Source of the DNA: an uncultured Alphaproteobacteria bacterium
GTDB taxonomy: Bacteria; Pseudomonadota; Alphaproteobacteria; Methylaequorales; Methylaequoraceae
NCBI GenBank assembly: GCA_902550225.1
Contig: CACCYL010000001.1
Span: 24,941-88,940, forward strand
Length of the DNA stretch: 64,000 bases
Reading direction: 5' to 3'
Position numbers and translations under genes: made by a program. Shown one piece after another: positions 12,733 to 29,649 of the stretch (the first letter of the stretch is position 1; every line of letters begins with the position of its first letter). Under the pieces are notes generated by a model that had not been told where the DNA came from, made no database searches, and saw nothing but the letters and a program-made list of their open reading frames with translations.

Positions 12733-14181
12733 CTATTTTTTCCAAAGCTGCGGTGATAAAAGTATTAAAATTGGAAAAAGTTCTAATCTTCCAATAAGCA
12801 TGCCTAAACTTAAAAACAGTTTTGTAAAATCTGAAATAGAAGAATAATTACCACTTGGTCCAATTATTTCATTTAAACCAGGACCAACATTTGCTAGCGT
12901 AGCCGCAGCTCCAGATAGGGAAGTAAGAATTTCTTGTCCGTCGAACGCTAAAACTAGGCTGAGAGTTGCAAAAACAAAAATATACAAAAAAAAATAACCA
13001 GTAACAGAAGTCAGAATGTCTTCGCTAATTTCTCTAGAATTGTATGTAGGGATAAAAACACCTCTAGGTTGGATTATTTTTTTGATTAAATTTAATGAGG
13101 ATTTTATAAGTATCTGAATTCTAAAAATCTTAAGACCGCAACTTGATGAACCTGAACAACCACCTATAAGCATTAGAAAAAGAAAAAGGAGAGTGGTAAA
13201 TGATCCCCAAACACTAAAATCATATGTACTAAAACCACTTCCTGTTGATATTGATGTGACTGCAAATGCTGAAATTCTCAAAGATTGAAAAAAATCAACT
13301 TCGTAGTATCTCTTCAACCAGAAAGCAACTAATATTGTGACACTACAAATTAAAATTAAAAAAAATCGAACTTGAGAACTTGCTACAAGGTCCATTAACT
13401 TTCCTCTAATAGACTGAAATAATAGAATGAAAGGTAAGGAGGATAAAATCATGAAAAAAATTGTAACAACTTCGATGTAAACTGAATCAAAGAAACCAAT
13501 TGACATATCTTTTGTTGAAAAGCCACCTGTCGCAATTATTGTCATACCATGAGCTAAACTATCAAAACCTGACATTCCAGTTATAAATAATGAAAAGCTA
13601 CAAATAATAGTTAGAAAGAAATAAACGAATCCAATTCCAGTTGCAATTTTTGTTGTTCTGGGAAGAACTTTTTCTTCTTTTGAGCTAAATTCACTTTGAA
13701 ATAACTGCATGCCACCAATCTTTAAAATTGGGAAAATTGCAATTGCAATTACAATTATACCTATGCCACCCAACCATTGAAGCATTGCTCTCCAAATTAA
13801 AATTGACTTCGATGTTGAATCAAGATTCTGAATAACAGTCGCTCCAGTCGTAGTTAATCCAGACATTGATTCAAAGAATGCATCGATTAATGTTAGATTA
13901 GTTGTTCCAAGATAGAATGGTAATGCTCCAATAAATGTAAGAAGTACCCACGAAATCAGTGTAAGGAGGAAAGCCGATAAAACTTCTACATCCTTATCTT
14001 TTCTCTTAAAAATAAATGAAACATTTAGACCAGTAAATAAGCAAACAATAGAAATTACAAAAAAAACAACCCAGTCAGTTCCTTGGTAGAAGTAATCTAT
14101 TACTCCAGGTATGAAAGAATAAATGGAAAAAAAAACTAACAAGTTTCCGATTACAAACAGAGAGGATTTTAAGTTTTCCAT
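12733..14181 (-). CDS. trkH: Trk-type potassium uptake protein
   Basis: 482 aa polytopic membrane protein with repeated selectivity-filter-like TTGAT / ATGGFS / STGSGFS / NVGPGL motifs typical of TrkH. Confidence 0.88.
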   Translation of the reverse strand: MENLKSSLFVIGNLLVFFSIYSFIPGVIDYFYQGTDWVVFFVISIVCLFTGLNVSFIFKRKDKDVEVLSAFLLTLISWVLLTFIGALPFYLGTTNLTLIDAFFESMSGLTTTGATVIQNLDSTSKSILIWRAMLQWLGGIGIIVIAIAIFPILKIGGMQLFQSEFSSKEEKVLPRTTKIATGIGFVYFFLTIICSFSLFITGMSGFDSLAHGMTIIATGGFSTKDMSIGFFDSVYIEVVTIFFMILSSLPFILLFQSIRGKLMDLVASSQVRFFLILICSVTILVAFWLKRYYEVDFFQSLRISAFAVTSISTGSGFSTYDFSVWGSFTTLLFLFLMLIGGCSGSSSCGLKIFRIQILIKSSLNLIKKIIQPRGVFIPTYNSREISEDILTSVTGYFFLYIFVFATLSLVLAFDGQEILTSLSGAAATLANVGPGLNEIIGPSGNYSSISDFTKLFLSLGMLIGRLELFPILILLSPQLWKK

Positions 14182-14184
14182 TTC

Positions 14185-14571
14185 CTAGTTTAAGTTGTTA
14201 CCTTGATTTGGAATATCAAGAGAGAAAGCTGGGATATCAACCTTAAATTCTTCTCCATCGAAACTTAGCATCTGATAACTTCCGTGCATTATGCCAGAAC
14301 TTGTTTTTAAAGGTGTTCCACTTGTATATTCAAATTTATCCCCTGGCTCTATGGTTGGCTGCTCACCTACAACTCCTTTTCCTTTTACTTCTCTAAAATT
14401 TCCGTTGGAGTCGAATATTTTCCAGTGTCTGCTTATTAATTTGATTTTTTCCTTTTCATTATTTTTGATTATAACCTTGTATGACCACAAGTATGAATCT
14501 TCGTACGGATCTGAGTGGTCTTCAAGATATGTGGATTCAACAAAAACTTTAACGTTATATTTTTTTATCAT
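14185..14571 (-). CDS. apaG: ApaG (DUF525) protein
   Basis: 128 aa. ..SRHWKIFDSNGNFREVKGKGVVGEQPTIEPGDKFEYTSG.. matches the ApaG signature. Confidence 0.88.
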   Translation of the reverse strand: MIKKYNVKVFVESTYLEDHSDPYEDSYLWSYKVIIKNNEKEKIKLISRHWKIFDSNGNFREVKGKGVVGEQPTIEPGDKFEYTSGTPLKTSSGIMHGSYQMLSFDGEEFKVDIPAFSLDIPNQGNNLN

Positions 14572-14579
14572 TTCGATTA

Positions 14580-15767
14580 CTATTTTAAATTTTCTAAGGA
14601 GTTATCAATATCTTCAATTATATCTTCTGGATCCTCAAGACCTACTGAGAGTCTTATTAGATTTTTTGTAATTCCGAGCTCTCTTTTTTCTTTTTCATTT
14701 AGTCTATGGTGAGTTGTTGTTTCAGGATGTGTTATTAAGGATTTTGTATCTCCGAGATTATTAGAAATGTCTATTAAAGACAATTTATTTAAAAATGAAA
14801 ATGATTTTTGTTTTTTTTCACTTGTTTTAGCATTAATTTCGAAGGAAACAACATTACCTCCACCTTTCATTTGTTTCATAGCTAATTTTATTTGAGGCGA
14901 ATCATTTAGAAAAGGATAATAAATTTTATTTATATATTTAGATTTTTGTAAATACTCGATAACTAAGTTTGTATTTTTCATTTGTTGTTTAATTCTTAGT
15001 TCAAGTGTCTCAAGGCCTTTTATTAATACCCAGGCATTAAAGGGACTCATGGATGGACCAGTATTTCTGATGAAGGGTTTTATAAATTCATCACAATGAC
15101 TTCTTTTACCTAGAATGGCTCCTCCCAAAACTCTTCCCTGACCATCGATATGCTTGGTTGCAGAATACATAACTATATCTGCGCCATGTTTAATCGGTTT
15201 TTGTAATAAGGGTGTAGCAAAAACATTGTCAACTACAACTAAAACTCCTTTTTTTTTTGCTAACTTTGAAACTTCTTCTATGTCGATAATTTCTAAACAT
15301 GGATTTGAAGGGGTTTCAAAAAAAATTAATGAAGTTCTTTTTTTTAGAGCTTTTTCCCAGGCATTAAGATCTTTTCCATCTATTAATTCAACCTCAATTC
15401 CAAACCTTGGAAGAATTTTTGTAATTATGTGATGACAACTTCCAAAAAGTGCTCTTCCTGCAACAACTCTGTCACCTTTTTTTAAAAATGACATAAAAAT
15501 GGTAAAAACTGCAGCCATACCAGTAGAGGTACACCAACAAACTTCTGCACCTTCAATGTCTGCTAATTTATCTTGAAGCATTTGAACAGTTGGATTTCCA
15601 AACCTGGAATACATAAATCTTTTTTTTTGTTCTTTAAATGCGTCTTCAGCTTCTTCAGCTGAATTGTAAACAAAGCCAGATGTTAAAAATAATGGCTCGC
15701 TAGTCTCCATGAACTCAGTTCTTTTTAAACCAGATCTAATTAACTTAGTCGAATTATCTTTTTTCAT
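14580..15767 (-). CDS. metZ: O-succinylhomoserine sulfhydrylase (Cys/Met-metabolism PLP enzyme)
   Basis: 395 aa. ..YSRFGNPTV.., ..DNVFATPLLQKP..GADIVMYSATKHIDGQGR.. (PLP-lysine region). The MetZ versus MetB distinction is by overall resemblance only. Confidence 0.75.
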   Translation of the reverse strand: MKKDNSTKLIRSGLKRTEFMETSEPLFLTSGFVYNSAEEAEDAFKEQKKRFMYSRFGNPTVQMLQDKLADIEGAEVCWCTSTGMAAVFTIFMSFLKKGDRVVAGRALFGSCHHIITKILPRFGIEVELIDGKDLNAWEKALKKRTSLIFFETPSNPCLEIIDIEEVSKLAKKKGVLVVVDNVFATPLLQKPIKHGADIVMYSATKHIDGQGRVLGGAILGKRSHCDEFIKPFIRNTGPSMSPFNAWVLIKGLETLELRIKQQMKNTNLVIEYLQKSKYINKIYYPFLNDSPQIKLAMKQMKGGGNVVSFEINAKTSEKKQKSFSFLNKLSLIDISNNLGDTKSLITHPETTTHHRLNEKEKRELGITKNLIRLSVGLEDPEDIIEDIDNSLENLK

Positions 15768-15817
15768 ATGATTTTTAGATTAACATTTCCTAAAATTTAT
15801 TTATAGTAGTGTAAATA

Positions 15818-17086
15818 ATGAGATCAATTTATTTTTTACATATATTTTTAATTTATTTTTGTTTTGGCTTTTTTATATTAGAAGCAAGAGAACTTTCGAT
15901 TAAACAAATTGAAGAAAGGAAACAATCTGATTTAGAGAGACTTAAAGAAAGAGAGAAAAGAGGAAATAAAAAGTTTTCAAAAGAAATAACATTGTCAACC
16001 AAACTCATATTTTTGAGTATGGAAAGAAAAACTCCTCCCGTGCTCTCAAATCTTGATCCTATTCTTGATGACGAGGGTTTTTACGGAGTAAAGCTTGCAA
16101 TTGAGGATAATTTAACAACTGGAAGATTTGTTGGTCACGATTATAAAGCAGAGTTTCATAGAATATTACTTAACGAGAATTTAAAAAGTGAATTTCAAAA
16201 ATTATTAAACCAAGGAAATAAATTTTTTATTGTTGATTTAAATGAAAAAGAATTGAAAACTCTCTTTGAAACATCAAATTCGGAAGAAATTGTCATTTTT
16301 AATGTTAGATCGAAAGCAGATTCTTTAAGGAATGAGAATTGTAAAAAAAATCTACTACATATCCCACCAAGTTACTCGATGCTCTCTGATGCTTTAACAC
16401 AATACCTTGTAAAAAAAAAATGGAATAAATGGTTTTTAGTTACTGGACCGGATGAAAATGATAGAAAATATGCAGATGCTCTAAAAAAATCAGCAAAAAA
16501 ATTTAACATTAAAATTAAAAAAGAAAAAGTTTGGGATTTTTCAGCAGATTTGAGACGTACAGCAGGTAAAGAAGTACCAATTTTTACAAAAGGAGAAAAA
16601 TATGATGTTTTGGTGGTTGCAGACGAAAAAGGTGAATTTGGTGAATATTTAACATATAGAACCTGGGATCCACGTCCAATTGTTGGAACGCAGGGACTTA
16701 CCCCAACGTCTTGGCATAGAACTCATGAACAATGGGGAGCAACACAAATGCAAAACAGATTCAGAAGAGAAAGTGGAAGATGGATGACAGAAGTTGATTA
16801 CCATGCATGGACTGCAGTTCGGTCAATTGGAGAAGCTATAACAAGAACAAGTAGCAATGATGTAAAAGATATAAGAAAATATTTGTTAGGAGAAAAATTT
16901 GGTCTTGGAGCTTATAAGGGAGTGAAAGTTTCATTCAGATCATGGAATGGGCAAATGAGACAGCCTATTTTATTGGCAGCGCCAAGATCAATGGTATCTG
17001 TTTCACCACAGGAAGGTTATATTCATCCAGATAGTGAATTAGATACTATGGGTAAAGATCAACCTGAATCTACTTGTAAATTTTAA
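15818..17086 (+). CDS. periplasmic substrate-binding protein of the PQQ-dehydrogenase-associated ABC system (PedA1/LutA-like)
   Basis: Signal peptide, about 400 aa branched-chain-amino-acid-type binding-protein-like body. First gene of an SBP / YVTN-propeller / ATPase / ABC-2-permease set, whose order matches the PQQ-ADH-associated ABC family as I recall it. Confidence 0.65.
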   Translation: MRSIYFLHIFLIYFCFGFFILEARELSIKQIEERKQSDLERLKEREKRGNKKFSKEITLSTKLIFLSMERKTPPVLSNLDPILDDEGFYGVKLAIEDNLTTGRFVGHDYKAEFHRILLNENLKSEFQKLLNQGNKFFIVDLNEKELKTLFETSNSEEIVIFNVRSKADSLRNENCKKNLLHIPPSYSMLSDALTQYLVKKKWNKWFLVTGPDENDRKYADALKKSAKKFNIKIKKEKVWDFSADLRRTAGKEVPIFTKGEKYDVLVVADEKGEFGEYLTYRTWDPRPIVGTQGLTPTSWHRTHEQWGATQMQNRFRRESGRWMTEVDYHAWTAVRSIGEAITRTSSNDVKDIRKYLLGEKFGLGAYKGVKVSFRSWNGQMRQPILLAAPRSMVSVSPQEGYIHPDSELDTMGKDQPESTCKF

Positions 17087-17107: not shown

Positions 17108-18073
17108 ATGACACGATTTATTTTCTGCCTGTTCTTTATATTTGTTGCAAAAACCTCTTTCGCCAACCTTGCGTATATAACAAACGAAAAAGACAATACC
17201 GTAAGCGTTATCGATATAAAAAAAAATAAAGTAATCAGAACAGTTGAAGTTGGTCAAAGACCAAGAGGCATAATCATGTCTAAGGACGGAAAGCTTGTGC
17301 TTATTTGTGCATCCGATGATGACAGAGTTGAAGTGCGTGAGGCTAAAACACTTAAATTAAAATATTATTTACCCTCTGGACCTGACCCCGAGTTATTCAT
17401 TTTGTCACCCAATGACGAAACCCTCTATATAGCTAACGAGGATGACGCTATGGTTACTGTAGTTGATATGAATGACAAAATGATCATTGATGATATACCG
17501 GTTGGTGTAGAACCTGAAGGAATGGGCTTAACAAATGATGGCAAAGTTTTAGTGAATACCTCTGAGACCACAAATATGGCTCACTTCATCGATACAAGCA
17601 CTTTAGATATTTTAGAGAATGTCCTAGTTGATGCTAGACCTAGAGTAGCTATGTTTACTCCTAATGACAAAGAAGTCTGGGTGTCTGCTGAGATTGGAGG
17701 AACTGTTAAAGTCATTAACCCATCAACGAAAGAAGTTACCCACACAATAGGTTTCGAAATTCCAGGAGTTAATGAAGAGAGTATTCAACCTGTTGGCGTT
17801 CGACACACCAATGATGGTAAGTATACCTTTGTTGCATTGGGGCCTGCCAATAGAATTGCAGTTATTGATCAAAAAACTAAGGAACTAATTAAATATTTAC
17901 TCGTTGGTCAAAGAGTTTGGCAATTAGCCTTTACTCCTGATCAGAAAACTCTACTCACTACTAATGGAGTAAGTAATGATGTTTCCATAATTGATGTGGA
18001 GAAACTAAAAGTAAAAAAATCCATCAAAGTTGGCCGTTTTCCCTGGGGCGTGGTAATAAGTCCTGAGTCCTAG
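17108..18073 (+). CDS. PQQ-dependent-catabolism-associated YVTN beta-propeller protein (PedA2/LutB-like)
   Basis: Signal peptide followed by repeated ..YITNEKDNTVSVID.., ..LYIANEDDAMVTVVD.., ..TTNGVSNDVSIID.. blades (YVTN repeats). Confidence 0.8.
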   Translation: MTRFIFCLFFIFVAKTSFANLAYITNEKDNTVSVIDIKKNKVIRTVEVGQRPRGIIMSKDGKLVLICASDDDRVEVREAKTLKLKYYLPSGPDPELFILSPNDETLYIANEDDAMVTVVDMNDKMIIDDIPVGVEPEGMGLTNDGKVLVNTSETTNMAHFIDTSTLDILENVLVDARPRVAMFTPNDKEVWVSAEIGGTVKVINPSTKEVTHTIGFEIPGVNEESIQPVGVRHTNDGKYTFVALGPANRIAVIDQKTKELIKYLLVGQRVWQLAFTPDQKTLLTTNGVSNDVSIIDVEKLKVKKSIKVGRFPWGVVISPES

Positions 18074-18085
18074 AGGACCATGTAA

Positions 18086-18832
18086 TTGGTCATAAGTCCT
18101 ATGAGTTCTGCCCTTCAAATTAAAAATGTTTCGCACAAATTTGGAGAATTTAAAGCACTTAAAAATGTTAGTATCAATATCGATTCTGGAGATTTCACAG
18201 TTTTACTTGGTCTAAATGGAGCGGGAAAAACTACACTTTACTCACTTATAACTAGACTATATAACAATAATTCTGGCTCTATAAAAATCCATAATTTTGA
18301 TGTTAGAGAAAAATCTTCAGATGCTCTCAAAAATATTGGAGTAGTTTTTCAACAACCTACACTTGATTTGGATCTCAGTGTCGAAGAAAATTTACATTAC
18401 CATTCGTCATTGCATGGTTTAAGTTTCGCTGATGCCACAGAAAGAATTGAAGAAGAAATTCAGAGAATAGATTTAACTGAAAAATTAAAAAATAAAGTAC
18501 GTTCTCTTTCGGGAGGTCAACGGAGACGAGTTGAGATCGCACGATCGCTTCTCCATAAACCAAAATTACTGCTTCTAGACGAGCCTACAGTTGGATTAGA
18601 TATTGGATCAAGGCAAATGATTCTTAAACACGTAAAATCACTTTGTAAAAAAAGAGAACTTGCAGTTTTATGGGCAACACACTTAATTGATGAAATTGAT
18701 AAAGGTGAAAAAGTTGTAATTATTCATAAAGGAGAAATAGTCGAATCGGGCGATGTATTAAAAATAGTAAAAAAAACGAAACAAAAAAATATCAGAGATG
18801 CCTTCAATAAGCTTGTTGGAGTGGAAGTATGA
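18086..18832 (+). CDS. ABC transporter ATP-binding protein (PedB/LutE-like)
   Basis: Walker A GLNGAGKTT, signature LSGGQRRR, Walker B LLLLDEPT. TTG at 18086 has an AGAGGA SD 8 nt upstream. An alternative ATG lies at 18101. Confidence 0.88.
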   Translation: MVISPMSSALQIKNVSHKFGEFKALKNVSINIDSGDFTVLLGLNGAGKTTLYSLITRLYNNNSGSIKIHNFDVREKSSDALKNIGVVFQQPTLDLDLSVEENLHYHSSLHGLSFADATERIEEEIQRIDLTEKLKNKVRSLSGGQRRRVEIARSLLHKPKLLLLDEPTVGLDIGSRQMILKHVKSLCKKRELAVLWATHLIDEIDKGEKVVIIHKGEIVESGDVLKIVKKTKQKNIRDAFNKLVGVEV

Positions 18833-19632
18833 AACCGATTATATATTTGAGATGTTTTAAAGGAATTGTATTAAGAGAGGCATTAAGATTCTTTCACCAA
18901 AAAGAACGATTTTTTTCAGCACTCGTTAGACCTTTAGTTTGGTTAGGAATATTTGCTGCAGGTTTCAGGTCTGTCCTTGGTGTGGCAATAATTCCTCCCT
19001 ATGAAACATATATTCCCTATGAGGTTTATATTGCTCCTGGTCTTATTGCAATGATTCAATTATTCAATGGGATGCAAAGCTCATTATCCATGGTTTATGA
19101 CAGAGAAATGGGGAGTATGAAAACGATGTTAGTTAGTCCCATTCCAAGGTGGTTTTTGCTAATATCGAAATTACTTGCTGGTGTATTTGTTTCTATACTT
19201 CAAGTCTATGCTTTCCTTATAATTGCGTCTTTCTGGGAGATTATACCTCCGATTACAGGTTATTTTACAATTTTACCAGCGTTGATATTTACTGGCTTAA
19301 TGTTAGGCTCGTTGGGGATGTTTCTTTCCTCGGCTATTAAACAATTAGAAAATTTTGCCGGGGTTATGAATTTTGTTATTTTTCCTATGTTTTTTGCCTC
19401 GTCAGCATTGTATCCACTTTGGAAGATTGAAGAAACTAGTGAATGGTTATATTACGTATGTTTTTATAATCCATTTACATATGCAGTTGAATCTATAAGA
19501 TTTTCTTTGTATTCTCAATTTAATTTTGAGTATACTGCAGGTATAGTAATTTTTACTGTAATATTTCTTATTCTATCAATTTTGGGATATGATCCTGCAA
19601 GAGGCTCTCTACAAAAAAAAGGAGGAAGTTAA
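18829..19632 (+). CDS. ABC-2 type permease (PedC/LutF-like)
   Basis: 267 aa, six TM segments, ABC-2 fold pattern. 4-nt ATGA overlap with the ATPase gene. Confidence 0.8.
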   Translation: MKPIIYLRCFKGIVLREALRFFHQKERFFSALVRPLVWLGIFAAGFRSVLGVAIIPPYETYIPYEVYIAPGLIAMIQLFNGMQSSLSMVYDREMGSMKTMLVSPIPRWFLLISKLLAGVFVSILQVYAFLIIASFWEIIPPITGYFTILPALIFTGLMLGSLGMFLSSAIKQLENFAGVMNFVIFPMFFASSALYPLWKIEETSEWLYYVCFYNPFTYAVESIRFSLYSQFNFEYTAGIVIFTVIFLILSILGYDPARGSLQKKGGS

Positions 19633-19635
19633 TAT

Positions 19636-20055
19636 ATGAATTTTTTAATGATTATAATCTTTTTATTTATTCAATTGCCAAGCGAGTCAAATGCAGAGGG
19701 TGATTTATCAATTCGGTCAAAAAAGTTAGTCTTAAATTTGGGATCTGACAAAAGCGATTACGATATGTCACAAAAAATTTTTAATATGGAAACTGGCAAA
19801 GCTTATAGATTAGAAATTACAAGTATGGGATTTAAAGAATATGAATTAGAAGCAGAGGATTTTTTTAGAAATATTTGGATTCGTTCAATTGAAATAGATG
19901 GGATTGAGTTAGATGCACCCGTAATTAATGAAATAGAATTTGAGAGAGAGGGTGAAATTGAAATTAAGTTTGTACCAATTAGGCCTGGAGAATATGATTT
20001 TGAAATTGAAAGGTTACAAAGTAAAGGAATGGTTGGTAAATTTATTGTTAAATAA
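19636..20055 (+). CDS. small secreted, strongly acidic protein with a cupredoxin-like C-terminal strand but no Cu ligands
   Basis: Strong SD (AGGAGG) inside the permease 3' end, ATG 4 nt after the permease stop. Signal peptide ..LPSESNA/EG. Glu/Asp-rich mature part. The C-terminus PGEYDFEIERLQSKGMVGKFIVK aligns by eye with the pseudoazurin PGIYLYQCSPHAAMGMIGLVVV, with Cys->Ile and His->Leu. Confidence 0.55.
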   Translation: MNFLMIIIFLFIQLPSESNAEGDLSIRSKKLVLNLGSDKSDYDMSQKIFNMETGKAYRLEITSMGFKEYELEAEDFFRNIWIRSIEIDGIELDAPVINEIEFEREGEIEIKFVPIRPGEYDFEIERLQSKGMVGKFIVK

Positions 20056-20073
20056 TTTTATTTGGGAGAAAAT

Positions 20074-20727
20074 ATGATGCAAAAAATAATTTTTAGTTTC
20101 TTTATTTACTTTACTATTATGCTCACGACAGCCAGTGATTCCTTATCGATCGAACTCGATAAAACACCAAAAAAATGGCCGTGCGATCAGGTGTATAACC
20201 CTAAACTAAATCTTGGATCAATATGGCAAGGGCCTTCTATAGAGGAATCTTTGAAAGATTGGTGGAAGCATGATGATGTGATTGAATACGTTAATATATT
20301 ATCTGAACCAACGTTAACCGAGGAGAACGGAACAGTTGTAATAGAGGAGTTTGCAAAAAAATATACTTATTTAGGTGTTTTAAAAAAACCTGAACAAAGA
20401 GAAAAGTTAATCTTTCTTTTTGCGGGTCTTTATCAAAAAGCTAAGGACAGAAGAGAAAGACAGTATAAGGGGATCATTAAATTTGTTGATAGGCAAGAAA
20501 GTCTAAGAAAGGCAATTGGTGAATCGTCAAAGTTAATAAGAAAATATAGAAAAAATAAAATGGATAAAAAAAGTAAAAAATATATTAATGCGAATTCCCA
20601 ATTAGAATGGAATACACGAGTTTTTGATCAGAGAACAAGATTAACGGAATATGTTTGTGAAGAACCAGTATTCAATACGCAAAGACTAGGATATCAAGCT
20701 AGAAAAATTCTATCTTATATCCAATAA
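20074..20727 (+). CDS. secreted or membrane-anchored hypothetical protein
   Basis: GGGAGA SD 5 nt before the ATG at 20074 (the ORF-track TTG at 20062 is less likely). N-terminal hydrophobic segment, K/R-rich helical C-terminal half. I recognise no family. Confidence 0.5.
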   Translation: MMQKIIFSFFIYFTIMLTTASDSLSIELDKTPKKWPCDQVYNPKLNLGSIWQGPSIEESLKDWWKHDDVIEYVNILSEPTLTEENGTVVIEEFAKKYTYLGVLKKPEQREKLIFLFAGLYQKAKDRRERQYKGIIKFVDRQESLRKAIGESSKLIRKYRKNKMDKKSKKYINANSQLEWNTRVFDQRTRLTEYVCEEPVFNTQRLGYQARKILSYIQ

Positions 20728-20861: not shown

Positions 20862-20939
20862 ATGGCTTGGACAAAACCAATGATTTCTGAGATCTCTGTA
20901 GGTCTAGAAATCAATTCTTACGCTTGCGCTGAGAAGTAA
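20862..20939 (+). CDS. pqqA: PQQ precursor peptide PqqA (25 aa; absent from the ORF track)
   Basis: My own translation gives MAWTKPMISEISVGLEINSYACAEK*. It contains the conserved W-x-x-P and the E-x3-Y (E-I-N-S-Y) cross-link pair. AAGGAG SD 8 nt upstream. Directly precedes pqqB. Confidence 0.88.
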   Translation: MAWTKPMISEISVGLEINSYACAEK

Positions 20940-21007: not shown

Positions 21008-21940
21008 ATGTTGAAAGTTTTGATTTTAGGTTCAGCTGCAGGAGGTGGTTCTCCACAATGGAACTGTAACAGTTCAGTGAGTAAAAAGGTCAGGGATGGA
21101 TTACCTGGAACTTCACCGAGAACTCAATCATCCATCGCAGTTACTTCAAATGACGAGGATTGGGTTTTGTTTAATGCTTCACCTGATTTAGGTTCACAAA
21201 TTTTAAATAATAAACAAATGCATCCGAAAAGAGATCTTAGGCATAGCCCTATCAAAGGTGTTGTTCTGACCAATGGCGATGTCGATCATGTTGCAGGTTT
21301 ATTATCACTGAGAGAAAGGCAAAATTTGTCTGTTTATGCTCACAAAAGAGTACATTCAGTTTTAAAAGAAAACTCGATTTTTAATGTTTTAAACCCAGAC
21401 TATGTAGATAGAAGAAATTTAGAAATGAATAAAAAATTCGAGGTTAAAAGTAAGGAAGGAAAAGATCTCAATATTGAAATAGAAGCATTTGAAGTCCCAG
21501 GAAAAATTGCACTTTGGCTAGAAGATGAATCAAAAGGGAAAAATTTTGGTACTGAAGAAGGAGATACAATTGGTTTAAAGATATTTTCATCGCAAAACAA
21601 TAAATCGTTTTTTTACATTCCAGCATGTGCAGACATGACAACTGATTTAGCTGAAAGAATTAAAGATTCAGATGTGGTGTTATTTGATGGAACTTTATGG
21701 GAAAATGACGAAATGGCTACCAGTAAGGTTGGTGAAAAAACTGGACAAAGAATGGGTCATATGAATAATTCTGGAAAAAATGGTTCAATACAAGCATTTA
21801 AAGATTTAGGGGTAAAAAGAAAAATTTTTATTCATATAAATACAACCAATCCAATACTTTTGGAAGATTCAAAAGAAAGAAAGATTGTTGAAGAAAATGG
21901 TTGGGAAGTAAGTTATGATGGAATGGAGATTGAAATATGA
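21008..21940 (+). CDS. pqqB: PQQ biosynthesis protein B (metallo-beta-lactamase fold)
   Basis: MLKVLILGSAAGGGSPQWNCN.. and ..LTNGDVDHVAGLL.. typical of PqqB. Position after pqqA. Confidence 0.92.
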   Translation: MLKVLILGSAAGGGSPQWNCNSSVSKKVRDGLPGTSPRTQSSIAVTSNDEDWVLFNASPDLGSQILNNKQMHPKRDLRHSPIKGVVLTNGDVDHVAGLLSLRERQNLSVYAHKRVHSVLKENSIFNVLNPDYVDRRNLEMNKKFEVKSKEGKDLNIEIEAFEVPGKIALWLEDESKGKNFGTEEGDTIGLKIFSSQNNKSFFYIPACADMTTDLAERIKDSDVVLFDGTLWENDEMATSKVGEKTGQRMGHMNNSGKNGSIQAFKDLGVKRKIFIHINTTNPILLEDSKERKIVEENGWEVSYDGMEIEI

Positions 21941-22722
21941 AAAGTATTGCTGAAGAAAAACTAAAAAACCAAATACTCATGACTAAAAATGAGTTTGAGC
22001 AGCGCCTTAGAAATATCGGTGCTGAACGTTACCACGATAATTGTAGATTTCATCATCTTCTTCATAGTGGAAAATTAAATAAAGGACAAGTACAGGCATG
22101 GGCGATCAATAGATATTATTATCAAATCAATATTTCTATTAAAGACTCTGCATTAATGTCCAGAATTAAAGATCCTGACCTCAGGAGAATTTGGATTAAA
22201 AGAATATTGGATCACGATGGAAGAAAAGGGGATGAAGGAGGTATTGAACGATGGTATAAATTAACTGATGGTCTTGATTTAGATCGAGATTATGTAAAAT
22301 CAACAGATGGTATTCTGCCAGCTACCAAATTTGCCGTTGATGCCTACGTGACTTTTGTAAGGGAGAAGCCAATTCTTGAAGGAGTAACATCTTCGCTAAC
22401 AGAGCTTTTTGCTCCTAAGATTCATAAAGAGCGAATTGTAGGCATGCTTGAAAACTATGATTTTATTAATGATATTACCATGGCTTATTTTAAAAAGAGA
22501 GTCGATCAGGCAACTGATGATGCCGATTTTGTCTTAAACTATGCACTAAAAAATGCGAAAACAAGAAAAGAACAAGATTCTGTTTGCGATGCTTTAAAAT
22601 TTAAAACTGATGTCCTATGGGTTATGCAGGACGCCCTATATCACTCTTATATCAATGGACATGTTCCACCAGGAGCTTTTATGCCAGAGGATTTTAATGA
22701 AAGATATACTGAAAATAAATGA
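21937..22722 (+). CDS. pqqC: pyrroloquinoline-quinone synthase
   Basis: ..RYHDNCRFHHLLHSGKLNKGQVQAWAINRYYYQ.. is the PqqC signature. ATGA overlap with pqqB. Confidence 0.92.
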   Translation: MKSIAEEKLKNQILMTKNEFEQRLRNIGAERYHDNCRFHHLLHSGKLNKGQVQAWAINRYYYQINISIKDSALMSRIKDPDLRRIWIKRILDHDGRKGDEGGIERWYKLTDGLDLDRDYVKSTDGILPATKFAVDAYVTFVREKPILEGVTSSLTELFAPKIHKERIVGMLENYDFINDITMAYFKKRVDQATDDADFVLNYALKNAKTRKEQDSVCDALKFKTDVLWVMQDALYHSYINGHVPPGAFMPEDFNERYTENK

Positions 22723-22984
22723 GAGCGTTAAACCAAAATTCCCAAAACATGTTAGATTTAGACATAATAAAGCAAGAGACGAATGGGTTATTTTGGCCCC
22801 TGAACGGCTTGTTAAACTTGATCCAGTCGCTGTTGAGATTCTCAAACTTGTCGATGGTAAAGTTTCTGTTGGTGAAATCTCAACTGACTTGTCAAAAAAG
22901 TTTAATGCACCTAAAGAGGTTATAATGAAAGATGTAATTGAAATGTTGCAAGAACTATCAGACAAAGGATTTATTGAAGAATGA
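22697..22984 (+). CDS. pqqD: PQQ biosynthesis peptide chaperone PqqD
   Basis: ..PKFPKHVRFRHNKARDEWVILAPERLVKLDPVAVEILKLVDG.. is PqqD-like. I chose the internal ATG at 22697 (95 aa, typical size). The ORF-track start at 22610 lies deep inside pqqC. Confidence 0.85.
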   Translation: MKDILKINESVKPKFPKHVRFRHNKARDEWVILAPERLVKLDPVAVEILKLVDGKVSVGEISTDLSKKFNAPKEVIMKDVIEMLQELSDKGFIEE

Positions 22985-24138
22985 AAAGCGATGAATTAAA
23001 ATCAGGTTCAAAACAGTTAAAGACTGCCTCTGAACACGGTATACAAGCGCCTTTGGCACTTCTAGCCGAACTCTCTCATAGATGTCCTCTGCAATGTCCT
23101 TATTGCTCAAACCCAGTCCAGCTTGAGAAAAAAACTGGTGAGTTAACAACAGATGAGTGGAAATCAGTTATTGACCAGGCTGTTGATATGGGCATGCATC
23201 AAATACATCTTTCAGGTGGAGAACCAACAGTCAGGCATGATCTTGAGGATATTGTTGAACATTGTACAGTCAAAGGTTTATATACGAATCTTATTACCTC
23301 TGGAGTTTTATTAAATCCTGATAGACTGAAAAAACTTGAGAAACTTGGTTTAGAGCATGTACAACTTTCCTTTCAAGATACTGACAACGAAAATGCAGAT
23401 AGAATTGGCGGCTATAAAGGAGGGCATGCAAAAAAACTTGAAGTAGCAAAATGGGTAAGAGAGGTTGAATTACCGTTAACTTGCAATTGTGTTGTTCATA
23501 GGCAAAATATAGATAATCTTGAAAATTTTATTCAAATGGCCCTTGACCTTGATGCTGAAAGGGTTGAGATTGCTCAGGTTCAATACTACGGTTGGGCCTT
23601 AAAAAATAGAGCAGCATTTATACCTACGCCCGAACAATTAGACCATGCCACTGAAATAGTTGAAAAAGCTAGAGTTGATCTCAAAGGAAAATTAGTTATT
23701 GATTACGTAATTCCCGATTATTACGCAAAGCATCCTAAAAATTGTATGGGAGGTTGGGGAAGAAGGTTTTTAAACATGAATCCAAAAGGAGAGGTATTAC
23801 CGTGTCACGCGGCAGAGACTATTCCCCACCTTAAGTTTGACAATGTTAGAGAAAAAAGCCTTAAATGGATTTGGGAGAACTCAGAGGCATTTAACTTATA
23901 CAGAGGTACCGATTGGATGCCTGATCCCTGTAAATCTTGTGATAGAAAAGAAATTGATTGGGGAGGTTGTAGATGCCAGGCGATGGCCCTAACTGGTGAC
24001 GCTAAAAATACTGATCCAGCGTGTTCTATATCACCTTTACACAAAGAAATATTTGCAATGGCAGCTGAAGAAGCTAGGCGTGCTCCACCAGAATTTATTT
24101 ACAGACGCTACGGCGTTAGATTTAATTCACCTATTTAA
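22981..24138 (+). CDS. pqqE: PqqA peptide cyclase (radical SAM/SPASM)
   Basis: CPLQCPYCSNP (CxxxCxxC) radical-SAM motif plus a C-terminal Cys-rich SPASM region (CKSCDRKEIDWGGCRCQA). ATGA overlap with pqqD. Confidence 0.93.
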   Translation: MKSDELKSGSKQLKTASEHGIQAPLALLAELSHRCPLQCPYCSNPVQLEKKTGELTTDEWKSVIDQAVDMGMHQIHLSGGEPTVRHDLEDIVEHCTVKGLYTNLITSGVLLNPDRLKKLEKLGLEHVQLSFQDTDNENADRIGGYKGGHAKKLEVAKWVREVELPLTCNCVVHRQNIDNLENFIQMALDLDAERVEIAQVQYYGWALKNRAAFIPTPEQLDHATEIVEKARVDLKGKLVIDYVIPDYYAKHPKNCMGGWGRRFLNMNPKGEVLPCHAAETIPHLKFDNVREKSLKWIWENSEAFNLYRGTDWMPDPCKSCDRKEIDWGGCRCQAMALTGDAKNTDPACSISPLHKEIFAMAAEEARRAPPEFIYRRYGVRFNSPI

Positions 24139-24235: not shown

Positions 24236-24667
24236 ATGAAAAAACTTTTTCTAACTTTATTTTTTGTAATGTTTTCAGCAAATTCTTTTGCCGCAGATGT
24301 TACAATAGAAATGCTAAATAAAAATAAAGAAACAAAAAAAAGAATGGTTTATAGTCAAGAACTTGTTAAGATTGACGTTGGTCAGTCCATTGAATGGGTT
24401 CCTACAGCTAAAGGACATAACGTAGAAATGCTAGCTGGTCCCGAAGGATATGAATTACCAAAAAAAACAAAATTAAACGACCCTGTGACCATAACTTTTG
24501 ACAAACCAGGTATTTACCTTTACCAATGTTCTCCTCACGCAGCAATGGGAATGATTGGTTTGGTTGTAGTTGGTGGCGACACCTCTAATATGGATGCTAT
24601 AAAAGCTTTGAAAGTTACAGGTGGAAAGTCTAAGAAAAAAAGAGACAAACTTTTAAGTGAAATTTAG
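24236..24667 (+). CDS. pseudoazurin (type-1 blue copper protein)
   Basis: Signal peptide. ..IEWVPTAKGHNVE.. (His ligand) and ..YQCSPHAAMGMIGLVVVG (C-x2-H-x4-M ligand set), as in pseudoazurins. Confidence 0.85.
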   Translation: MKKLFLTLFFVMFSANSFAADVTIEMLNKNKETKKRMVYSQELVKIDVGQSIEWVPTAKGHNVEMLAGPEGYELPKKTKLNDPVTITFDKPGIYLYQCSPHAAMGMIGLVVVGGDTSNMDAIKALKVTGGKSKKKRDKLLSEI

Positions 24668-24732: not shown

Positions 24733-25641
24733 CTATTCAGACAGGTTAACAGATACCCACCTTTCCAGCGATGGTCCAGGTTTAAATACATCCGGGTGTA
24801 TAATTTCGCATAAAATTTTTATACTTTCCAGTAATCGTGGTCCTGGTCTGTTAAAAAACTTGTTACCATCTACTACAAATACTTCTTTCTGTTTAAGTAA
24901 TGAATGAAAATTAAGATTTGACTTTTTAATTTCAAGTTTTGTTCTTCTTATATCAAATCCGCACGGCATAAATATAACAATGTCAAATTTATTTGATGAA
25001 AGTTCACTTGTAGAAATAAATTTTGAATTCTTTCCAGATTCAATTAAAACATTTTCTGCATTGCTTATACTCAAAATTTCAGGAATCCAATTACCAGCAA
25101 TCATTAGGGGCTCTATCCATTCAATACATAAAACCTTTTTCGTATTGGTAAAGTTTAACTTTTTCTTAATAACGTTAATTTCCTTGTTAATTATTTCAAT
25201 AACCTTTGAAGCTTCGTTATAGGCATTGAGTTTTTCTCCAACAAATAAAATATCGTTGATGACGTCTTTAAAATAATTAGGTTTTAAATCTATTAAGATT
25301 GGCTTTTTTTTGAGCCAGAGATTTAAACATTTTTTTACATCTTCAATTGAAACTGCACATACCGAACAATGAGATTGAGTTATAATGACATCTGGATTAA
25401 TTTTTTGGAGAAGTTCTGAATCAACCTCATATACAGACAGTCCTTTTTCTAAAATGCTTTGAATATTTTGGTTAATATTATAAGAAGTTTCATTGACATC
25501 AACTTTACTTTTTGTAAGTTTAGGAAGTTTTTCAATACCTTGTGGATAATCGCATTCGTGCGAAATACCAACCAGGTTATTAATTAGCCCTAGAGAACAA
25601 ACAATTTCAGTGGCACTAGGGATAAGACTTACTATCTTCAT
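24733..25641 (-). CDS. TroA/BtuF-like (cobalamin / Fe-siderophore type) binding protein without a signal peptide
   Basis: MKIVSLIPSATEIVCSLGL..VGISHECDYP.. is the class-8 periplasmic-binding-protein N-terminal pattern. There is no hydrophobic leader. Confidence 0.6.
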   Translation of the reverse strand: MKIVSLIPSATEIVCSLGLINNLVGISHECDYPQGIEKLPKLTKSKVDVNETSYNINQNIQSILEKGLSVYEVDSELLQKINPDVIITQSHCSVCAVSIEDVKKCLNLWLKKKPILIDLKPNYFKDVINDILFVGEKLNAYNEASKVIEIINKEINVIKKKLNFTNTKKVLCIEWIEPLMIAGNWIPEILSISNAENVLIESGKNSKFISTSELSSNKFDIVIFMPCGFDIRRTKLEIKKSNLNFHSLLKQKEVFVVDGNKFFNRPGPRLLESIKILCEIIHPDVFKPGPSLERWVSVNLSE

Positions 25642-25709: not shown

Positions 25710-26591
25710 CTATTGGACTGGAGCTCTGCCTTTTATCAACGCGTCTGTGGTGCTGTCAGATTTTTTTCTTTTTCCAGGTCTTAGGCTTAAGATCGGAATG
25801 TTGTGTTTTACAAGAATTTCGTCGATTTCTTTCTGATTTTCCTTTATAAATTTATTTAGTTTTTTCTTCCAATCAGTTTCACCATCTCTTACACCCATTG
25901 TTGTGTAATAATCCATCCTACCCCAACCCTGATCGGTAGTTTCTAGGGGAATAAATTCATATTTGCTTTTGTCATAACCCTTTTTTTCAAGATAGTATAC
26001 AGCAATGGGTCCAGACATAAATACGATGTCGACTAAACCATCAATTAGATCTTCTATCATTGACTCCCCAATCACCGCTTTTCTAGGGTCAAATGTGAGG
26101 TTGTAAGGCCTTACCCTACCCATAAGATTATATCTTTGTAGAACAAAAGTAGGAGGGGTGCCAGCTTGAACTCCAATACTTAGATCAGCTAACTGAGGAT
26201 GATTAGGTCTATCAACTTCTATTCCATTTTCTTTGAGAAAAATCATCCCATATGACCATCTCATGTAAGGTATGGTATTTAGCACCAGATCGTTACCAGC
26301 AGTAATTCCAATTAAAATGTCACACTTTTTCTTGTTAAGTGTGTTTCTAACATATCCAATTACCTGAGGAAAGTATTCATAGACTACTGGAATATTTAGC
26401 TTTTCACCGAGCAAATCGGCTATAGCGTTTTCGAAACCTTCCCCTTTTTCATTTGAAAAAGGGAGGTTTGAGGGGTCTGCGCAAACTCGTAAATTTTCCG
26501 TATCAACAGCTTCAATAGCAGATTCTCTAGATTTTACATCCATTGTGAGCAACATTACTAGAGATAATGTAAGTATGAAGACTCGTTGCAT
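25710..26591 (-). CDS. xoxJ: XoxJ/MoxJ-type quinoprotein-dehydrogenase-associated periplasmic binding protein
   Basis: Signal peptide. LRVCADPSNLPFSNEKGEGFENAIADLL.. is the family-3 SBP pattern seen in MxaJ/XoxJ. Downstream of xoxF-xoxG. Confidence 0.8.
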   Translation of the reverse strand: MQRVFILTLSLVMLLTMDVKSRESAIEAVDTENLRVCADPSNLPFSNEKGEGFENAIADLLGEKLNIPVVYEYFPQVIGYVRNTLNKKKCDILIGITAGNDLVLNTIPYMRWSYGMIFLKENGIEVDRPNHPQLADLSIGVQAGTPPTFVLQRYNLMGRVRPYNLTFDPRKAVIGESMIEDLIDGLVDIVFMSGPIAVYYLEKKGYDKSKYEFIPLETTDQGWGRMDYYTTMGVRDGETDWKKKLNKFIKENQKEIDEILVKHNIPILSLRPGKRKKSDSTTDALIKGRAPVQ

Positions 26592-26614
26592 TTGAAATTT
26601 AAGTAAAATTGAAT

Positions 26615-27229
26615 TTAGTCAACTTCTTTAAATTTTGGAAGCTTTGGTAGTCTAACTCCACGTCTTATTTTACCGTCAGCTCTAGCTTTAACATAGCGAA
26701 ATATGTCTTCAACGTGTGGAGCAACATTTGTATTTGCACCGTAAGCAGGCATCACATTACCTTTTTGTGCACCTTCATCTTCGCCTCTTCCATTCATAAT
26801 TACGTTAAAGAAATCGTCATATGATAAGCCTTGTGTAACCGATACCATTAAAGAAGGAGCGTAAGTACTTCCCATTGCATCAGGCCCGTGACATACGTGG
26901 CATTCGGCATGGTAAGCTCTCCATCCTTTATAAGTTGCAAAATCCATCCAACCATATTGCATTTCAACCAAGCTATCATCACCTCTGCACTCTTCTAAGT
27001 CATCTTCTGATACCATATCAACTGCTTTGCCTTTACAATTAATTTGGATTAGATTCAGAGGAGTACCATCTTCTTTTAATCTGTCGCCCTTACCATATTT
27101 AATAATGTAAGTTGGGTTGTCATCTTCATCGAAAGCAGGTTCAACTGCTTCTGGAGTTGGGATCGCTTTAGCACTAAATCCTACGACTAGTGATGCAACT
27201 AAAGCAAATTTATTAAATTTAAAGTTCAT
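26615..27229 (-). CDS. xoxG: cytochrome c (cL-type, XoxG)
   Basis: Signal peptide, single haem motif CHVCHG, about 200 aa. Located between xoxF and xoxJ. Confidence 0.8.
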   Translation of the reverse strand: MNFKFNKFALVASLVVGFSAKAIPTPEAVEPAFDEDDNPTYIIKYGKGDRLKEDGTPLNLIQINCKGKAVDMVSEDDLEECRGDDSLVEMQYGWMDFATYKGWRAYHAECHVCHGPDAMGSTYAPSLMVSVTQGLSYDDFFNVIMNGRGEDEGAQKGNVMPAYGANTNVAPHVEDIFRYVKARADGKIRRGVRLPKLPKFKEVD

Positions 27230-27281
27230 GTTTCAAAGTCCTAATTAATCATTAAAAAAATAGTTATTATTTATATTGTAA

Positions 27282-27290
27282 ATTATATCA
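27282..27290 (-). promoter_or_regulatory. candidate extended -10 promoter element for xoxG-xoxJ
   Basis: The minus strand reads TGATATAAT (TGn plus a perfect TATAAT) about 50 nt upstream of the xoxG ATG and downstream of the xoxF terminator. Confidence 0.35.
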
Positions 27291-27319
27291 AAATCTCAAG
27301 AAATTTAAAAAATTTTTTT

Positions 27320-27349
27320 CAAAAAAAAAGCCCGACTGAAAAGCCGGGC
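27320..27349 (-). terminator. rho-independent terminator immediately downstream of xoxF
   Basis: The minus strand reads AGCCCG-gcttttcagt-CGGGCT followed by T9, starting about 24 nt after the xoxF stop. Confidence 0.8.
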
Positions 27350-27373
27350 TTCTTTTAAATACTGTTTACGCTA

Positions 27374-29206
27374 CTACGGTAAAGCGAAGACAGTTAATAC
27401 GCCACCTAATGCAGTGTGGTTACTTAGTGCAGAGTATGCACCAACAGCACCTAAACCTGCAGTTGGGTCAGTAAGACCAGCAGCAAGACCGATTCCAGCC
27501 CAACCACCAACACCTGATAAGATACCTACATATTGCTTACCTTTATGAGAGTAAGCCATGAAGTTACCGATAATACCAGAAGGTGTTTTGAACGAGAATA
27601 GTTCTTTACCAGTTTTACTTTCAACAGCTTTAGCGTATCCTTCTAACGTACCGTAGAATGTAATTCCACCAGCTGTAGCTAATGCACCACTCCATACAGA
27701 GAAAGGCTCAGGGTTAGACCATGCGATCTTACCTTTGTCAGCATCCCATGCAATGAAGTTACCTAGGTGTGTTCCGCCTGGAGCTGGGTACATAGATAAT
27801 GTAGCACCAACATAAGCGTTACCAGCAACGTAGTCTACTTTGAATGGTTCGTAGTCCATGCAAACGTGGTTTGTTGGAACCATGAACAATCCAGATAGTC
27901 TATCGTAAGCAGCAGGCTGTTGGTCTTTAGTACCTAGAGCCGCTGGGCAGATGTTAGTAGTGTTAACATCTTCACCTTGGTGTGCAGTTGAATATCTGTC
28001 TACCACTTGTGGACGACCTGTTTTCATGTCAACGTGAGTTGCCCAGTTCACAGCTGGATCATACTTCTCAGCAACTAATAGCTCACCAGAAGCTCTATCC
28101 ATTGTGTAAGCAAAACCGTTTCTGTCAAAGTGTACAAGTGCTTGACGGTTTTTACCTTTTACTTTCATGTCAACAAGAATCATCTCGTTAACACCGTCGT
28201 AATCCCACTCATCGTAAGGAGTCATTTGATATAACCATTTAGCCATACCGTTGTCTGGGTTACGAGCCATAATCGTCATAGACCATTTGTTGTCACCAGG
28301 ACGAACAACTGGGTTCCATGTTGATGGGTTACCTGTACCGTAGTACAAAGTGTTTAATTTAGAGTCATAACCGTAGAAACCCCAAATTGAACCACCACCA
28401 ATTTTCCATGCATCACCAGGCCAAGTTTTCAATGAAGAATCTTTACCAATTGGTTTTAACATAGAAGTAGTTTTGTTTGGATCAACTAGCATGTCCTTAT
28501 CTGGACCCATGCTGTAAGCTCTCCAAAGTCTCTTACCACTGTTGATATCGTACTGTGTCCAGTTACATCTCACACCGAATTCAGCACCAGAACAACCAAC
28601 ACCTACCATGTCTTTGATGATGAATGGTTGACCTGAACCAGTAGAAGCAGAGACACCATATTTACCAGTACCAGAGTGTAGGTTAGTTGTAATCCACTTC
28701 TCTTTACCAGTTTTAGCGTCTAGCGCAATTACTGAAGTATCAGCAGCATGTAGAACGATAGTTCCATTAGGGTGATAGTTAACACCACGGTTTACGTTAT
28801 CGCAGCACATAACTGAAATAACTCTATCCATAGTTTCACCACCTGGATACTTACCACCTTTTACAGGGTTGTATTTCCACATGATTCTTTGGTTATCATT
28901 TAGATCTAAAGCGTACACTATGTTTGGAATTGCAGTGTGAACATACATTACATCACCAATTACTAGTGGACCACCTTCGTGTCCTCTAAGTACACCAGTA
29001 GAAAAAGTCCAAGCGACTTTTAAGCTACCAACGTTACTTTTATTGATTTGATCAAGGTTTGAGAAACGGTGACCAGCGTAATCGCCAGACTGTTGTACCC
29101 ATTGTCCTGGATCTTTCATCATTTTTTCAAGCTTTGAGTTAGCACTTACAGCAAATGGAAGAGCTAAAGCAGCTGAAGCAATGATGCTTTTTTTCAAAAT
29201 ACTCAT
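27374..29206 (-). CDS. xoxF: lanthanide-dependent PQQ methanol/alcohol dehydrogenase, XoxF type
   Basis: Eight-bladed PQQ-ADH signatures, vicinal-disulfide CC ([10 protein letters not shown]), and active site ..[11 protein letters not shown].. with D-Y-D (MxaF has D-x-A). Start chosen at MSILKKSII.. (AGGAGA SD, signal peptide). The ORF-track N-terminal 34 aa are rejected. Confidence 0.92.
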
Positions 29207-29311
29207 AAAGTATTTCTCCTTTATTACGATTAATATTTGGGCGACTGCCCGGTTATTGATTGGAATCAAAAACAAACAAAAATCGTTAGTTATTTGATTT
29301 CCTCCCACCTC

Positions 29312-29499: not shown

Positions 29500-29649
29500 T
29501 AAATTAACTTTTGTTCAGAATTCAAAAAAATTAAGTGAAATCAATTACTTACACACATAAAAAATTTGGTCATTTTATTGAACTGCATTTTACAACGATT
29601 TATGCAAAAAAATTCTTAAATATCTACTCAATATGTGTATATTAATCTT

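Follow-up and report, generated by a model that had tools for sequence, protein, structure and literature searches.

The 64,000-nucleotide stretch of DNA analysed here (the window; contig CACCYL010000001.1, from an uncultured Alphaproteobacteria bacterium) encodes, in positions 19636..20055 of the plus strand (stop codon included), a protein of 139 amino acids that we call CupL. The open reading frame is a real gene, and its product is an acidic cupredoxin that has lost its copper ligands and carries a predicted signal for export. Across genomes, cupL is conserved and accompanies the Ped/Lut transporter genes where lanthanide-type pyrroloquinoline quinone (PQQ) dehydrogenases are encoded. CupL very probably corresponds to LutC of Methylorubrum extorquens. 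It may act as a LutC-type accessory of the Ped/Lut lanthanide-uptake ATP-binding cassette (ABC) system in the periplasm, with a hand-off or buffer mechanism that would operate through carboxylates at the former copper end of the fold. We put the probability of this mechanism, which is read from sequence, at roughly 0.45. An earlier reading of the window from the DNA alone (the sequence-only reading) had proposed that cupL encodes an undescribed binding protein for lanthanides or other hard cations.

A cupredoxin without copper ligands

A protein identical to CupL is recorded on 455 contigs, and comparison of cupL with its orthologues in related single-cell and metagenome assemblies gives ratios of nonsynonymous to synonymous substitution rates (dN/dS) of 0.03-0.12, indicative of strong purifying selection. 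Therefore, cupL is a real gene under selection. Its start is well defined. The ATG at 19636 lies 4 nucleotides past the TAA stop codon of the preceding permease gene (19630-19632, plus strand), and a strong Shine-Dalgarno sequence, AGGAGG (19620..19625, plus strand), can be read within the 3' end of that gene, 10 nucleotides ahead of the ATG. Both features had already been described in the sequence-only reading.

The N-terminus of CupL, MNFLMIIIFLFIQLPSESNA followed by EGDL, resembles a Sec signal peptide, as judged by eye and from the alignment of homologues. The predicted signal peptide comprises residues 1-20 (19636..19695, plus strand), with likely cleavage after S-N-A. The prediction is based on the hydrophobic character of the N-terminus, on low values of the predicted local distance difference test (pLDDT) for residues 1-20 of the structure model, and on a junction of the type A-x-A/[EKA]-G-[DN]-L that is aligned in the homologues. 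After cleavage at this site, mature CupL would consist of 119 residues, with 26 Asp and Glu (21.8%), 17 Lys and Arg, and an isoelectric point (pI) of 4.6. The count of acidic residues is the one given earlier, for an estimated mature length of about 118. For comparison, the 59 long open reading frames of the window, which has a G+C content of about 30%, have a mean Asp and Glu content of 11% and a median pI of 9.3. CupL contains neither Cys nor His.

When CupL is scanned as a single sequence, only sub-threshold cupredoxin matches are obtained (PF13473, E 0.027; TIGR02656, E 0.0096). An exhaustive homologue search over 1.84 billion representatives (E <= 0.001) assigned 278 clusters at 50% identity to the CupL family, mostly proteins of 140-150 amino acids. 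An alignment of 40 sequences was then used for an AlphaFold2 model and for a family profile. The model is all-beta, with ten strands and a mean pLDDT of 90.8, and blocks from residue 31 onwards have values of at least 92. In a Foldseek search with this model, all top 50 PDB matches listed were cupredoxin domains, with probability 1.00 and E values down to 4e-7, among them the Bacillus Cupredoxin_1 protein 4hcf, copper nitrite reductase, plastocyanins, AcoP, multicopper oxidases and N2O reductase. The family profile, compared with PDB sequences, detected plastocyanins at E values of 1.3e-5 to 1e-3. By the Greek-key beta-sandwich and by the homology to plastocyanin/azurin-type proteins that the profile makes detectable, CupL belongs to the cupredoxin superfamily. 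Structure prediction, fold comparison and profile thus agree with the earlier description as a secreted cupredoxin-type protein, with the signal peptide being a prediction.

With the type-1 blue copper proteins (plastocyanin, pseudoazurin, Pfam Cupredoxin_1 and Copper-bind), CupL shares the fold, sequence homology, and the C-terminal PGxYxF...GMxGxhxV motif with the axial Met. In contrast to these proteins, it lacks the His, Cys and His ligands, scores below the Pfam and NCBIfam cut-offs, is acidic, and is encoded next to a transporter and not a redox chain. The positions of the copper ligands are occupied by Tyr69 (upstream His), Ile124 (Cys) and Leu127 (His), and only the axial Met132 is kept. 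The His...Cys-xn-His-xn-Met set that defines type-1 blue copper proteins is thus absent. What remains of the copper loop, residues P117-M132 (19984..20031, plus strand), can be aligned with the family members that retain the copper ligands and with the pseudoazurin encoded in the same window; the latter alignment is gapless, with a pairwise BLASTP E value of 0.005. The similarity of the C-terminus to the pseudoazurin loop, the exchange of Cys for Ile and of His for Leu, and the absence of an upstream His had all been recognized correctly from the DNA.

Loss of the ligands is the rule in the family. The full His...Cys...His...Met set is absent from 73 of 77 full-length representatives and kept in four (P0193, P0208, P0222 and P0267), three of which (P0193, P0208 and P0267) are known from contigs of 1-2 kb. 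The CupL family is thus a ligand-less branch of the type-1 copper proteins. Pfam and NCBIfam contain no model specific to it, and its members are listed in databases as "hypothetical", as "copper-binding protein" (PGAP) or as "uncharacterized cupredoxin-like copper-binding protein". For most members, "copper-binding protein" is a misleading name, whatever the function of CupL. Most members from Hyphomicrobiales and from Halomonas/Billgrantia have Cys69 and Cys124 (KEC...WxC) at the former His and Cys positions, unlike CupL with Tyr and Ile. Examples are found among loci L027-L069 (L031, 9947-10384; L040, 9797-10366). The two Cys residues could form a disulfide or a residual thiolate/metal site.

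Linkage to Ped/Lut transporters and lanthanide-type dehydrogenases

The four genes directly upstream of cupL, all on the plus strand, encode the components of a PedA1A2BC system, and each product scores above the curated cut-off of the respective TIGR model. They are a periplasmic substrate-binding protein of PedA1/LutA type (15818..17086; TIGR03863, 476 bits, cut-off 413.6), a YVTN beta-propeller protein of PedA2/LutB type (17108..18073; TIGR03866, 488 bits, cut-off 287), an ABC ATPase of PedB/LutE type (18086..18832; TIGR03864, 332 bits, cut-off 302) and an ABC-2 permease of PedC/LutF type (18829..19632; TIGR03861, 400 bits, cut-off 241), whose gene overlaps the ATPase gene by 4 nucleotides. 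A promoter-like site is present at 15780-15807, ahead of pedA1, and no terminator-like site was found between 15500 and 21100. In the simplest reading, pedA1, pedA2, pedB, pedC, cupL and the lutG-like gene behind it are probably co-transcribed as a single operon. The coupling of cupL to an ABC system, as proposed from the DNA, is borne out by the homology of this system to PedA1A2BC and LutABEF, whose role in lanthanide uptake has been proven genetically. LutA, LutB, LutE and LutF of M. extorquens are needed for lanthanide-dependent growth (PMC6850437, PMC7391723), and the same is reported for PedA1A2BC of Pseudomonas putida (PMC6839425).

The association of cupL with this transporter is not peculiar to the window. 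When one genome per species was scanned with patterns seeded on CupL motifs and not on gene context, 69 loci were obtained. The scan patterns ([RE][EK]GE[AIC]E[IL][FKY]F and a second one) were derived from an alignment of four sequences and bias the 69 loci toward one subgroup, and conservation statistics were therefore taken only from an unbiased set of representatives. In 68 of the 69 loci, cupL is found beside Ped/Lut genes, in four orders. SAR11-like marine Alphaproteobacteria have the order of the window (A1-A2-B-C-cupL-lutG). In Hyphomicrobiaceae, Bosea, Azorhizobium, Ancylobacter and Beijerinckiaceae, cupL is located between the propeller and ATPase genes (A1-A2-cupL-B-C-lutG), in Halomonas/Billgrantia it comes first (cupL-A1-A2-B-C), and in Marinobacterium, Motiliproteus and Sedimenticola it is divergently transcribed (C-B-A2-A1 <> cupL). 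Divergent family members, which were sampled separately, add the arrangement cupL-A2-A1-C (P0301 and a tandem-duplicated form). On a Microvirga contig, the propeller-cupL pair stands alone, with no ATPase and permease genes after it. Exceptions to the linkage are an orphan cupL of Grimontia celer among purine-catabolism and glyoxalase genes (L024, 9980-10414), and a cupL on a Roseomonas marmotae plasmid behind an unrelated three-gene ABC system, near pqqBC and formaldehyde-detoxification genes (L070, 8911-9363). The tandem-duplicated form is a two-domain CupL of 258 amino acids, found in a Devosia-like metagenome-assembled genome (MAG) and in metagenomes (L073-L075, gene 972-1750), directly upstream of the genes for the propeller, the binding protein and an ABC-2 permease.

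The Asp residue of a W-D-x-D motif marks lanthanide-dependent PQQ dehydrogenases. A PQQ dehydrogenase sequence that covers this motif is present within the 10-kb flanks of 48 genome loci, and the lanthanide-type Asp is found in 47 of them, including the PedH/ExaF-like enzymes of Gammaproteobacteria. The sole exception, in a Marinobacterium MAG (L060, about 13217-14761), has W-D-F-S-G with the calcium-type Ser. The XoxF protein of the window carries the signature as W-D-Y-D-G at residue 368. The sequence-only reading would have been called into question by homologues that are common in non-methylotrophs without xoxF. Homologues in non-methylotrophs do occur (Halomonas/Billgrantia, Marinobacterium, Sedimenticola), yet they are found beside PedH/ExaF-like dehydrogenases with the lanthanide-type Asp. 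The link is hence to lanthanide-dependent PQQ enzymes in general and not to xoxF alone. It is well supported that CupL works together with the transporter, the beta-propeller and the binding protein in hosts with lanthanide-dependent PQQ alcohol dehydrogenases. There, it probably acts in the periplasm, on or beside the lanthanide cargo.

The characterized system that is most relevant for CupL is the lut cluster of M. extorquens. It encodes LutC (MexAM1_META1p1780 / Mext_1848), a hypothetical protein described as having a "putative cupredoxin-fold", and an exported cupredoxin fold has been stated for Mext_1848/1849 (PMC6850437). LanD (META1p1781), encoded by the other gene of the pair, is a 6.8-kDa, disulfide-linked three-helix bundle (PMC11551332), and the cupredoxin-like member must therefore be LutC. 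For the same reason, an identity of CupL with LanD was rejected. Like LutC, CupL is a small protein with a predicted signal peptide and a cupredoxin fold (putative for LutC), encoded inside a lutA-lutB-(...)-lutE-lutF-lutG cluster. Unlike lutC, which precedes the ATPase gene, cupL follows the permease gene in the window, but Beijerinckiaceae, Microvirga and other Hyphomicrobiales have CupL-family members exactly at the lutB-lutE position. In contrast to the M. extorquens cluster, the cluster in the window contains no lanD, lanM or TonB receptor gene. In view of its position and of the published remark on the fold, it is very likely that CupL corresponds to LutC. The notion that the protein is undescribed can thus be upheld only in part. 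LutC has been noted, and its deletion phenotype measured (PMC6850437, PMC7391723), but no paper that characterizes it biochemically was found in a search of the literature outside subscription journals.

Possible functions of CupL

In the reading that we prefer, the carboxylate-rich end of the beta-sandwich where copper is bound in other cupredoxins (the "northern" end) would form a weak, exposed hard-cation site, composed of E68, E/D103-105 and E123/E125. This putative site may bind Ln3+, either free or partly chelated, and CupL may pass it on to the propeller (LutB/PedA2), to the binding protein (LutA/PedA1) or to apo-XoxF. A buffering or hand-off role of this kind has been proposed for LanD, a weak binder of Ln3+ that uses a few glutamates on its surface (PMC11551332).

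The evidence for such a site comes from the distribution of carboxylates in the family. Among 77 representatives, the median pI is 5.1, 68 have a pI below 7, and the mean Asp and Glu content is 15%; CupL is at the high end. In the unbiased set, the most conserved acidic positions are E91 (acidic in 94%), E101 (88%), E/D103 (87%), E68 (82%), D75 (77%) and E52 (61%). Two of these are specific to the ligand-less clade. Position 68, which together with Y69 at the upstream His ligand position is encoded by 19837..19842 (plus strand), is acidic in 86% of the 73 ligand-less representatives, but Lys in all four relatives that retain the copper ligands. At position 103, an acidic residue is present in 92% of the ligand-less ingroup, compared to L, P, K and K in the four relatives, and a partly similar distribution is seen at positions 104 and 105. 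Residues 103-105 make up the turn of an acidic beta-hairpin, E99-I-E-F-E-R-E-G-E-I-E109 (19930..19962, plus strand; strands 99-102 and 106-114 in the model, with E/D103 at the turn). In the profile alignment, the turn coincides with plastocyanin residues of about 64-66, which we take, from the topology of the fold, to be at the copper ("northern") end. The former copper loop of CupL is also acidic (D121, E123 and E125). Thus, soft ligands have been lost and carboxylates gained at one and the same end of the sandwich, which modestly supports a re-purposed site, putatively a hard-cation site built around E68 and E103. The statement of the sequence-only reading that the scaffold had "gained carboxylates" stands for E68 and E/D103 and partly for 104 and 105. 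It does not for E52, D75, E91 and E101, which are shared with the copper-type relatives.

Several points weigh against a metal site. The positions E52, D75, E86, E91, E99, E101 and E109 are acidic in the copper-ligand-retaining relatives as well and must therefore be ancestral, and these common carboxylates are quite possibly structural. The copper-type outgroup consists of only four sequences, and the clustering of E68, E103 and E123 is derived from cupredoxin topology. Conserved basic residues (K55, R58, R78 and R116) are about as numerous as conserved acidic ones. In plant plastocyanin, the equivalent region is an acidic patch that serves protein docking and not metal binding. The literature outside subscription journals, to which the search was confined, yielded no metal-binding measurement for any family member. 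CupL has been equated with LutC by position and reported fold, and the nearest proxies for the M. extorquens sequence are a Beijerinckiaceae protein (P0137, 42% identity to CupL) and a Microvirga protein (P0364, 70% identity to P0137). Finally, the phenotype of the lutC deletion is mild. In M. extorquens grown with La, it causes a lag of 9 h and a rate of 0.11 vs 0.16 h-1, whereas mutants without lutA, lutB or lutG are severely impaired and those without lutE or lutF fail to grow (PMC7391723). Any role of LutC in M. extorquens must therefore be auxiliary or redundant.

Alternatively, CupL could be an adaptor that does not bind metal at all. Its conserved acidic face might dock to a basic surface of PedA2/LutB, of PedA1/LutA or of the periplasmic side of the permease, and could stabilize or gate the complex. 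The docking patch of plastocyanin and the many conserved charged residues that are common to copper-type relatives are in line with this explanation, as is the position of cupL, most often directly beside the propeller gene and in Microvirga paired with the propeller gene even where the ATPase and permease genes do not follow. Moreover, NosZ-like enzymes, which PedA2 partially matches in NCBIfam, fuse cupredoxin domains to propellers of the lactonase/YVTN type. A fusion of propeller and CupL, by contrast, does not occur among the 150 representatives listed. Of the longer hits that were scanned, four have no Pfam match, one has a short-chain dehydrogenase match, and the others are ordinary multi-cupredoxin copper proteins; none is fused to a part of the transporter. 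An adaptor role also leaves unexplained why the loss of the copper ligands went along with new carboxylates, E68 and E103, at the end that formerly bound metal. We regard it as unlikely, though not markedly so.

An organic ligand, bound by Arg and Lys together with carboxylates, has less to recommend it. In this case, CupL would be a shuttle for a chelate or a cofactor, either a lanthanophore-Ln complex or PQQ. The conserved residues K55, R58, R78 and R116 and the proximity of the cluster to pqqABCDE would fit, and the ABC system is thought to import chelated lanthanide (PMC11551332, PMC7391723). The topology, however, places the conserved basic residues at the opposite ("southern") turns, and the former copper pocket is filled by Y69, I124, L127 and M132, which probably leave no obvious cavity. 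In addition, no genes for the biosynthesis of a lanthanophore were seen in the part of the window that was examined. An organic ligand is improbable. A genuine copper-binding or electron-transfer role, for example in taking electrons from XoxG, is suggested by the fold, the database names, the retained Met132 and the few family members with all four ligands, but it was rejected as extremely improbable, because CupL has lost the His, Cys and His ligands and contains no Cys or His at all, 73 of 77 representatives lack the ligand set, a gene 4 kb downstream encodes a real pseudoazurin, and cupL tracks the ABC transporter and not the dehydrogenase/cytochrome pair.

If CupL does hand off or buffer lanthanides as a LutC-type accessory, it would resemble LanD, LanM and LanPepSY in being a small exported protein encoded in or near lanthanide-uptake clusters. 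It differs from them in structure. LanD is a three-helix bundle, LanM contains EF-hands and LanPepSY is a PepSY protein, whereas CupL is a beta-sandwich with an all-beta model, and Pfam and NCBIfam scans of its sequence gave no EF-hand, LanD-type or PepSY matches. Proteins of known lanthanide-binding types can be encoded in the slot next to cupL, namely LanD in M. extorquens (PMC11551332) and a PepSY-domain protein of 83 amino acids in Paracoccus alcaliphilus (plasmid p429813; L071, 8920-9594), where it follows cupL between the propeller and ATPase genes. This suggests that the slot is a hot spot for lineage-specific lanthanide-binding accessories. The recruitment of periplasmic cupredoxin-fold modules to metal uptake has parallels in the N-terminal Cup domain of EfeO and in FtrB (PMC11966278), and one CupL family member has a weak EfeO match. 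These proteins differ from CupL in serving Fe2+/Fe3+ systems with different transporters, and their copper sites are kept or altered for ferroxidase-type chemistry; no specific homology was shown.

It is conceivable, if doubtful, that CupL and LutC constitute a fourth and structurally new class of lanthanide-binding proteins, in which a beta-sandwich would have turned the remains of a type-1 copper site (E68, E103-105 and the copper loop) into a hard-cation site for periplasmic hand-off in streamlined marine methylotrophs without LanM and LanD. Periplasmic lanthanide trafficking is partly understood, and LanM, LanD and LanPepSY are each limited to some lineages. The CupL family accompanies the Ped/Lut transporter across Alpha- and Gammaproteobacteria, including genome-streamlined marine methanol oxidizers. 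The host of CupL appears to belong to a group of marine Alphaproteobacteria with low G+C content that MAG records list under Rickettsiales or Pelagibacteraceae. This lineage may be "Clade X", with the reportedly most highly expressed marine xoxF5 genes (PMC11996626). Should CupL prove to bind lanthanides, no other soluble lanthanide-handling protein of the pathway would be as widely conserved. It would also be a clean example of how a copper site can become a hard-cation site, and would offer rare-earth separation a new scaffold. If it binds no metal, it would still be a conserved subunit, for which models of Lut/Ped transport have to find a place. CupL is not a surprise, in that its kind is already known, yet it is biochemically uncharacterized and a worthwhile target for experiments.

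Neighbouring genes

The propeller encoded upstream of cupL (17108-18073, plus strand) shares 63% identity with its counterpart in a Microvirga MAG (L081) and is thus far better conserved than CupL, whose identity at that distance is about 40-50%. The propeller blades start with acidic motifs (NEKDN, NEDD, SETTN), and in NCBIfam the protein weakly matches the zinc metallochaperone AztD and lactonase-type NosZ. The propeller itself may be a periplasmic lanthanide chaperone. A precedent is the AztD-AztC pair, in which the binding protein of an ABC importer receives its metal from a periplasmic zinc metallochaperone. Unlike CupL, AztD is a propeller, so that the analogy concerns PedA2, the partner of CupL.

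Behind cupL, in the lutG position, an exported protein of 217-221 amino acids is encoded on the plus strand (20062..20727, likely start ATG 20074). It has two conserved Cys residues (in WPC and YVCE) and matches the product of the post-permease gene of a Beijerinckiaceae locus (BLASTP E 2e-19), and in about 30 loci tblastn found matches at this position. The protein matched no family in Pfam or NCBIfam. A single-sequence AlphaFold2 model was predicted helical, with a pLDDT of 48.9, and was not used. Between this gene and pqqB, a small open reading frame (20862..20939, plus strand) encodes MAWTKPMISEISVGLEINSYACAEK, the 25-residue PqqA precursor peptide with its E-x-x-x-Y motif. The genes pqqB, pqqC, pqqD and pqqE follow (21008..24138, plus strand), named by similarity from open reading frames and conserved tblastn matches in related loci.

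The pseudoazurin gene (24236..24667, plus strand) directly follows pqqE in this xox/pqq island and is present in only some related marine loci. Its product has intact type-1 copper ligands and matches PF00127 (E 4.9e-15) and TIGR02375 (99 bits, just under the cut-off of 109.85). It might carry electrons for the XoxF/XoxG chain. The xoxJ, xoxG and xoxF genes are located on the minus strand (25710..29308; TIGR03871, TIGR03874 and TIGR03075). Between the pseudoazurin gene and xoxJ, a protein of 302 amino acids is encoded on the minus strand (24733-25641). It matches periplasmic ABC binding proteins weakly, has no obvious signal peptide, and is confined to the closest relatives (L002-L006). Divergent from xoxF, a gene on the plus strand (29635-30453) encodes a fused SoxYZ-like "quinoprotein dehydrogenase-associated carrier" (TIGR04557, 236 bits), and such a gene adjoins xoxF in many related loci. 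Further downstream (31698-34732, plus strand), there is a run of genes that resemble those of tetrahydromethanopterin biosynthesis, for a FolB-domain protein, an MfnE-like kinase, an archaeoflavoprotein/dihydromethanopterin reductase-like protein and a dihydropteroate synthase-like protein, which fits a methylotrophy island.

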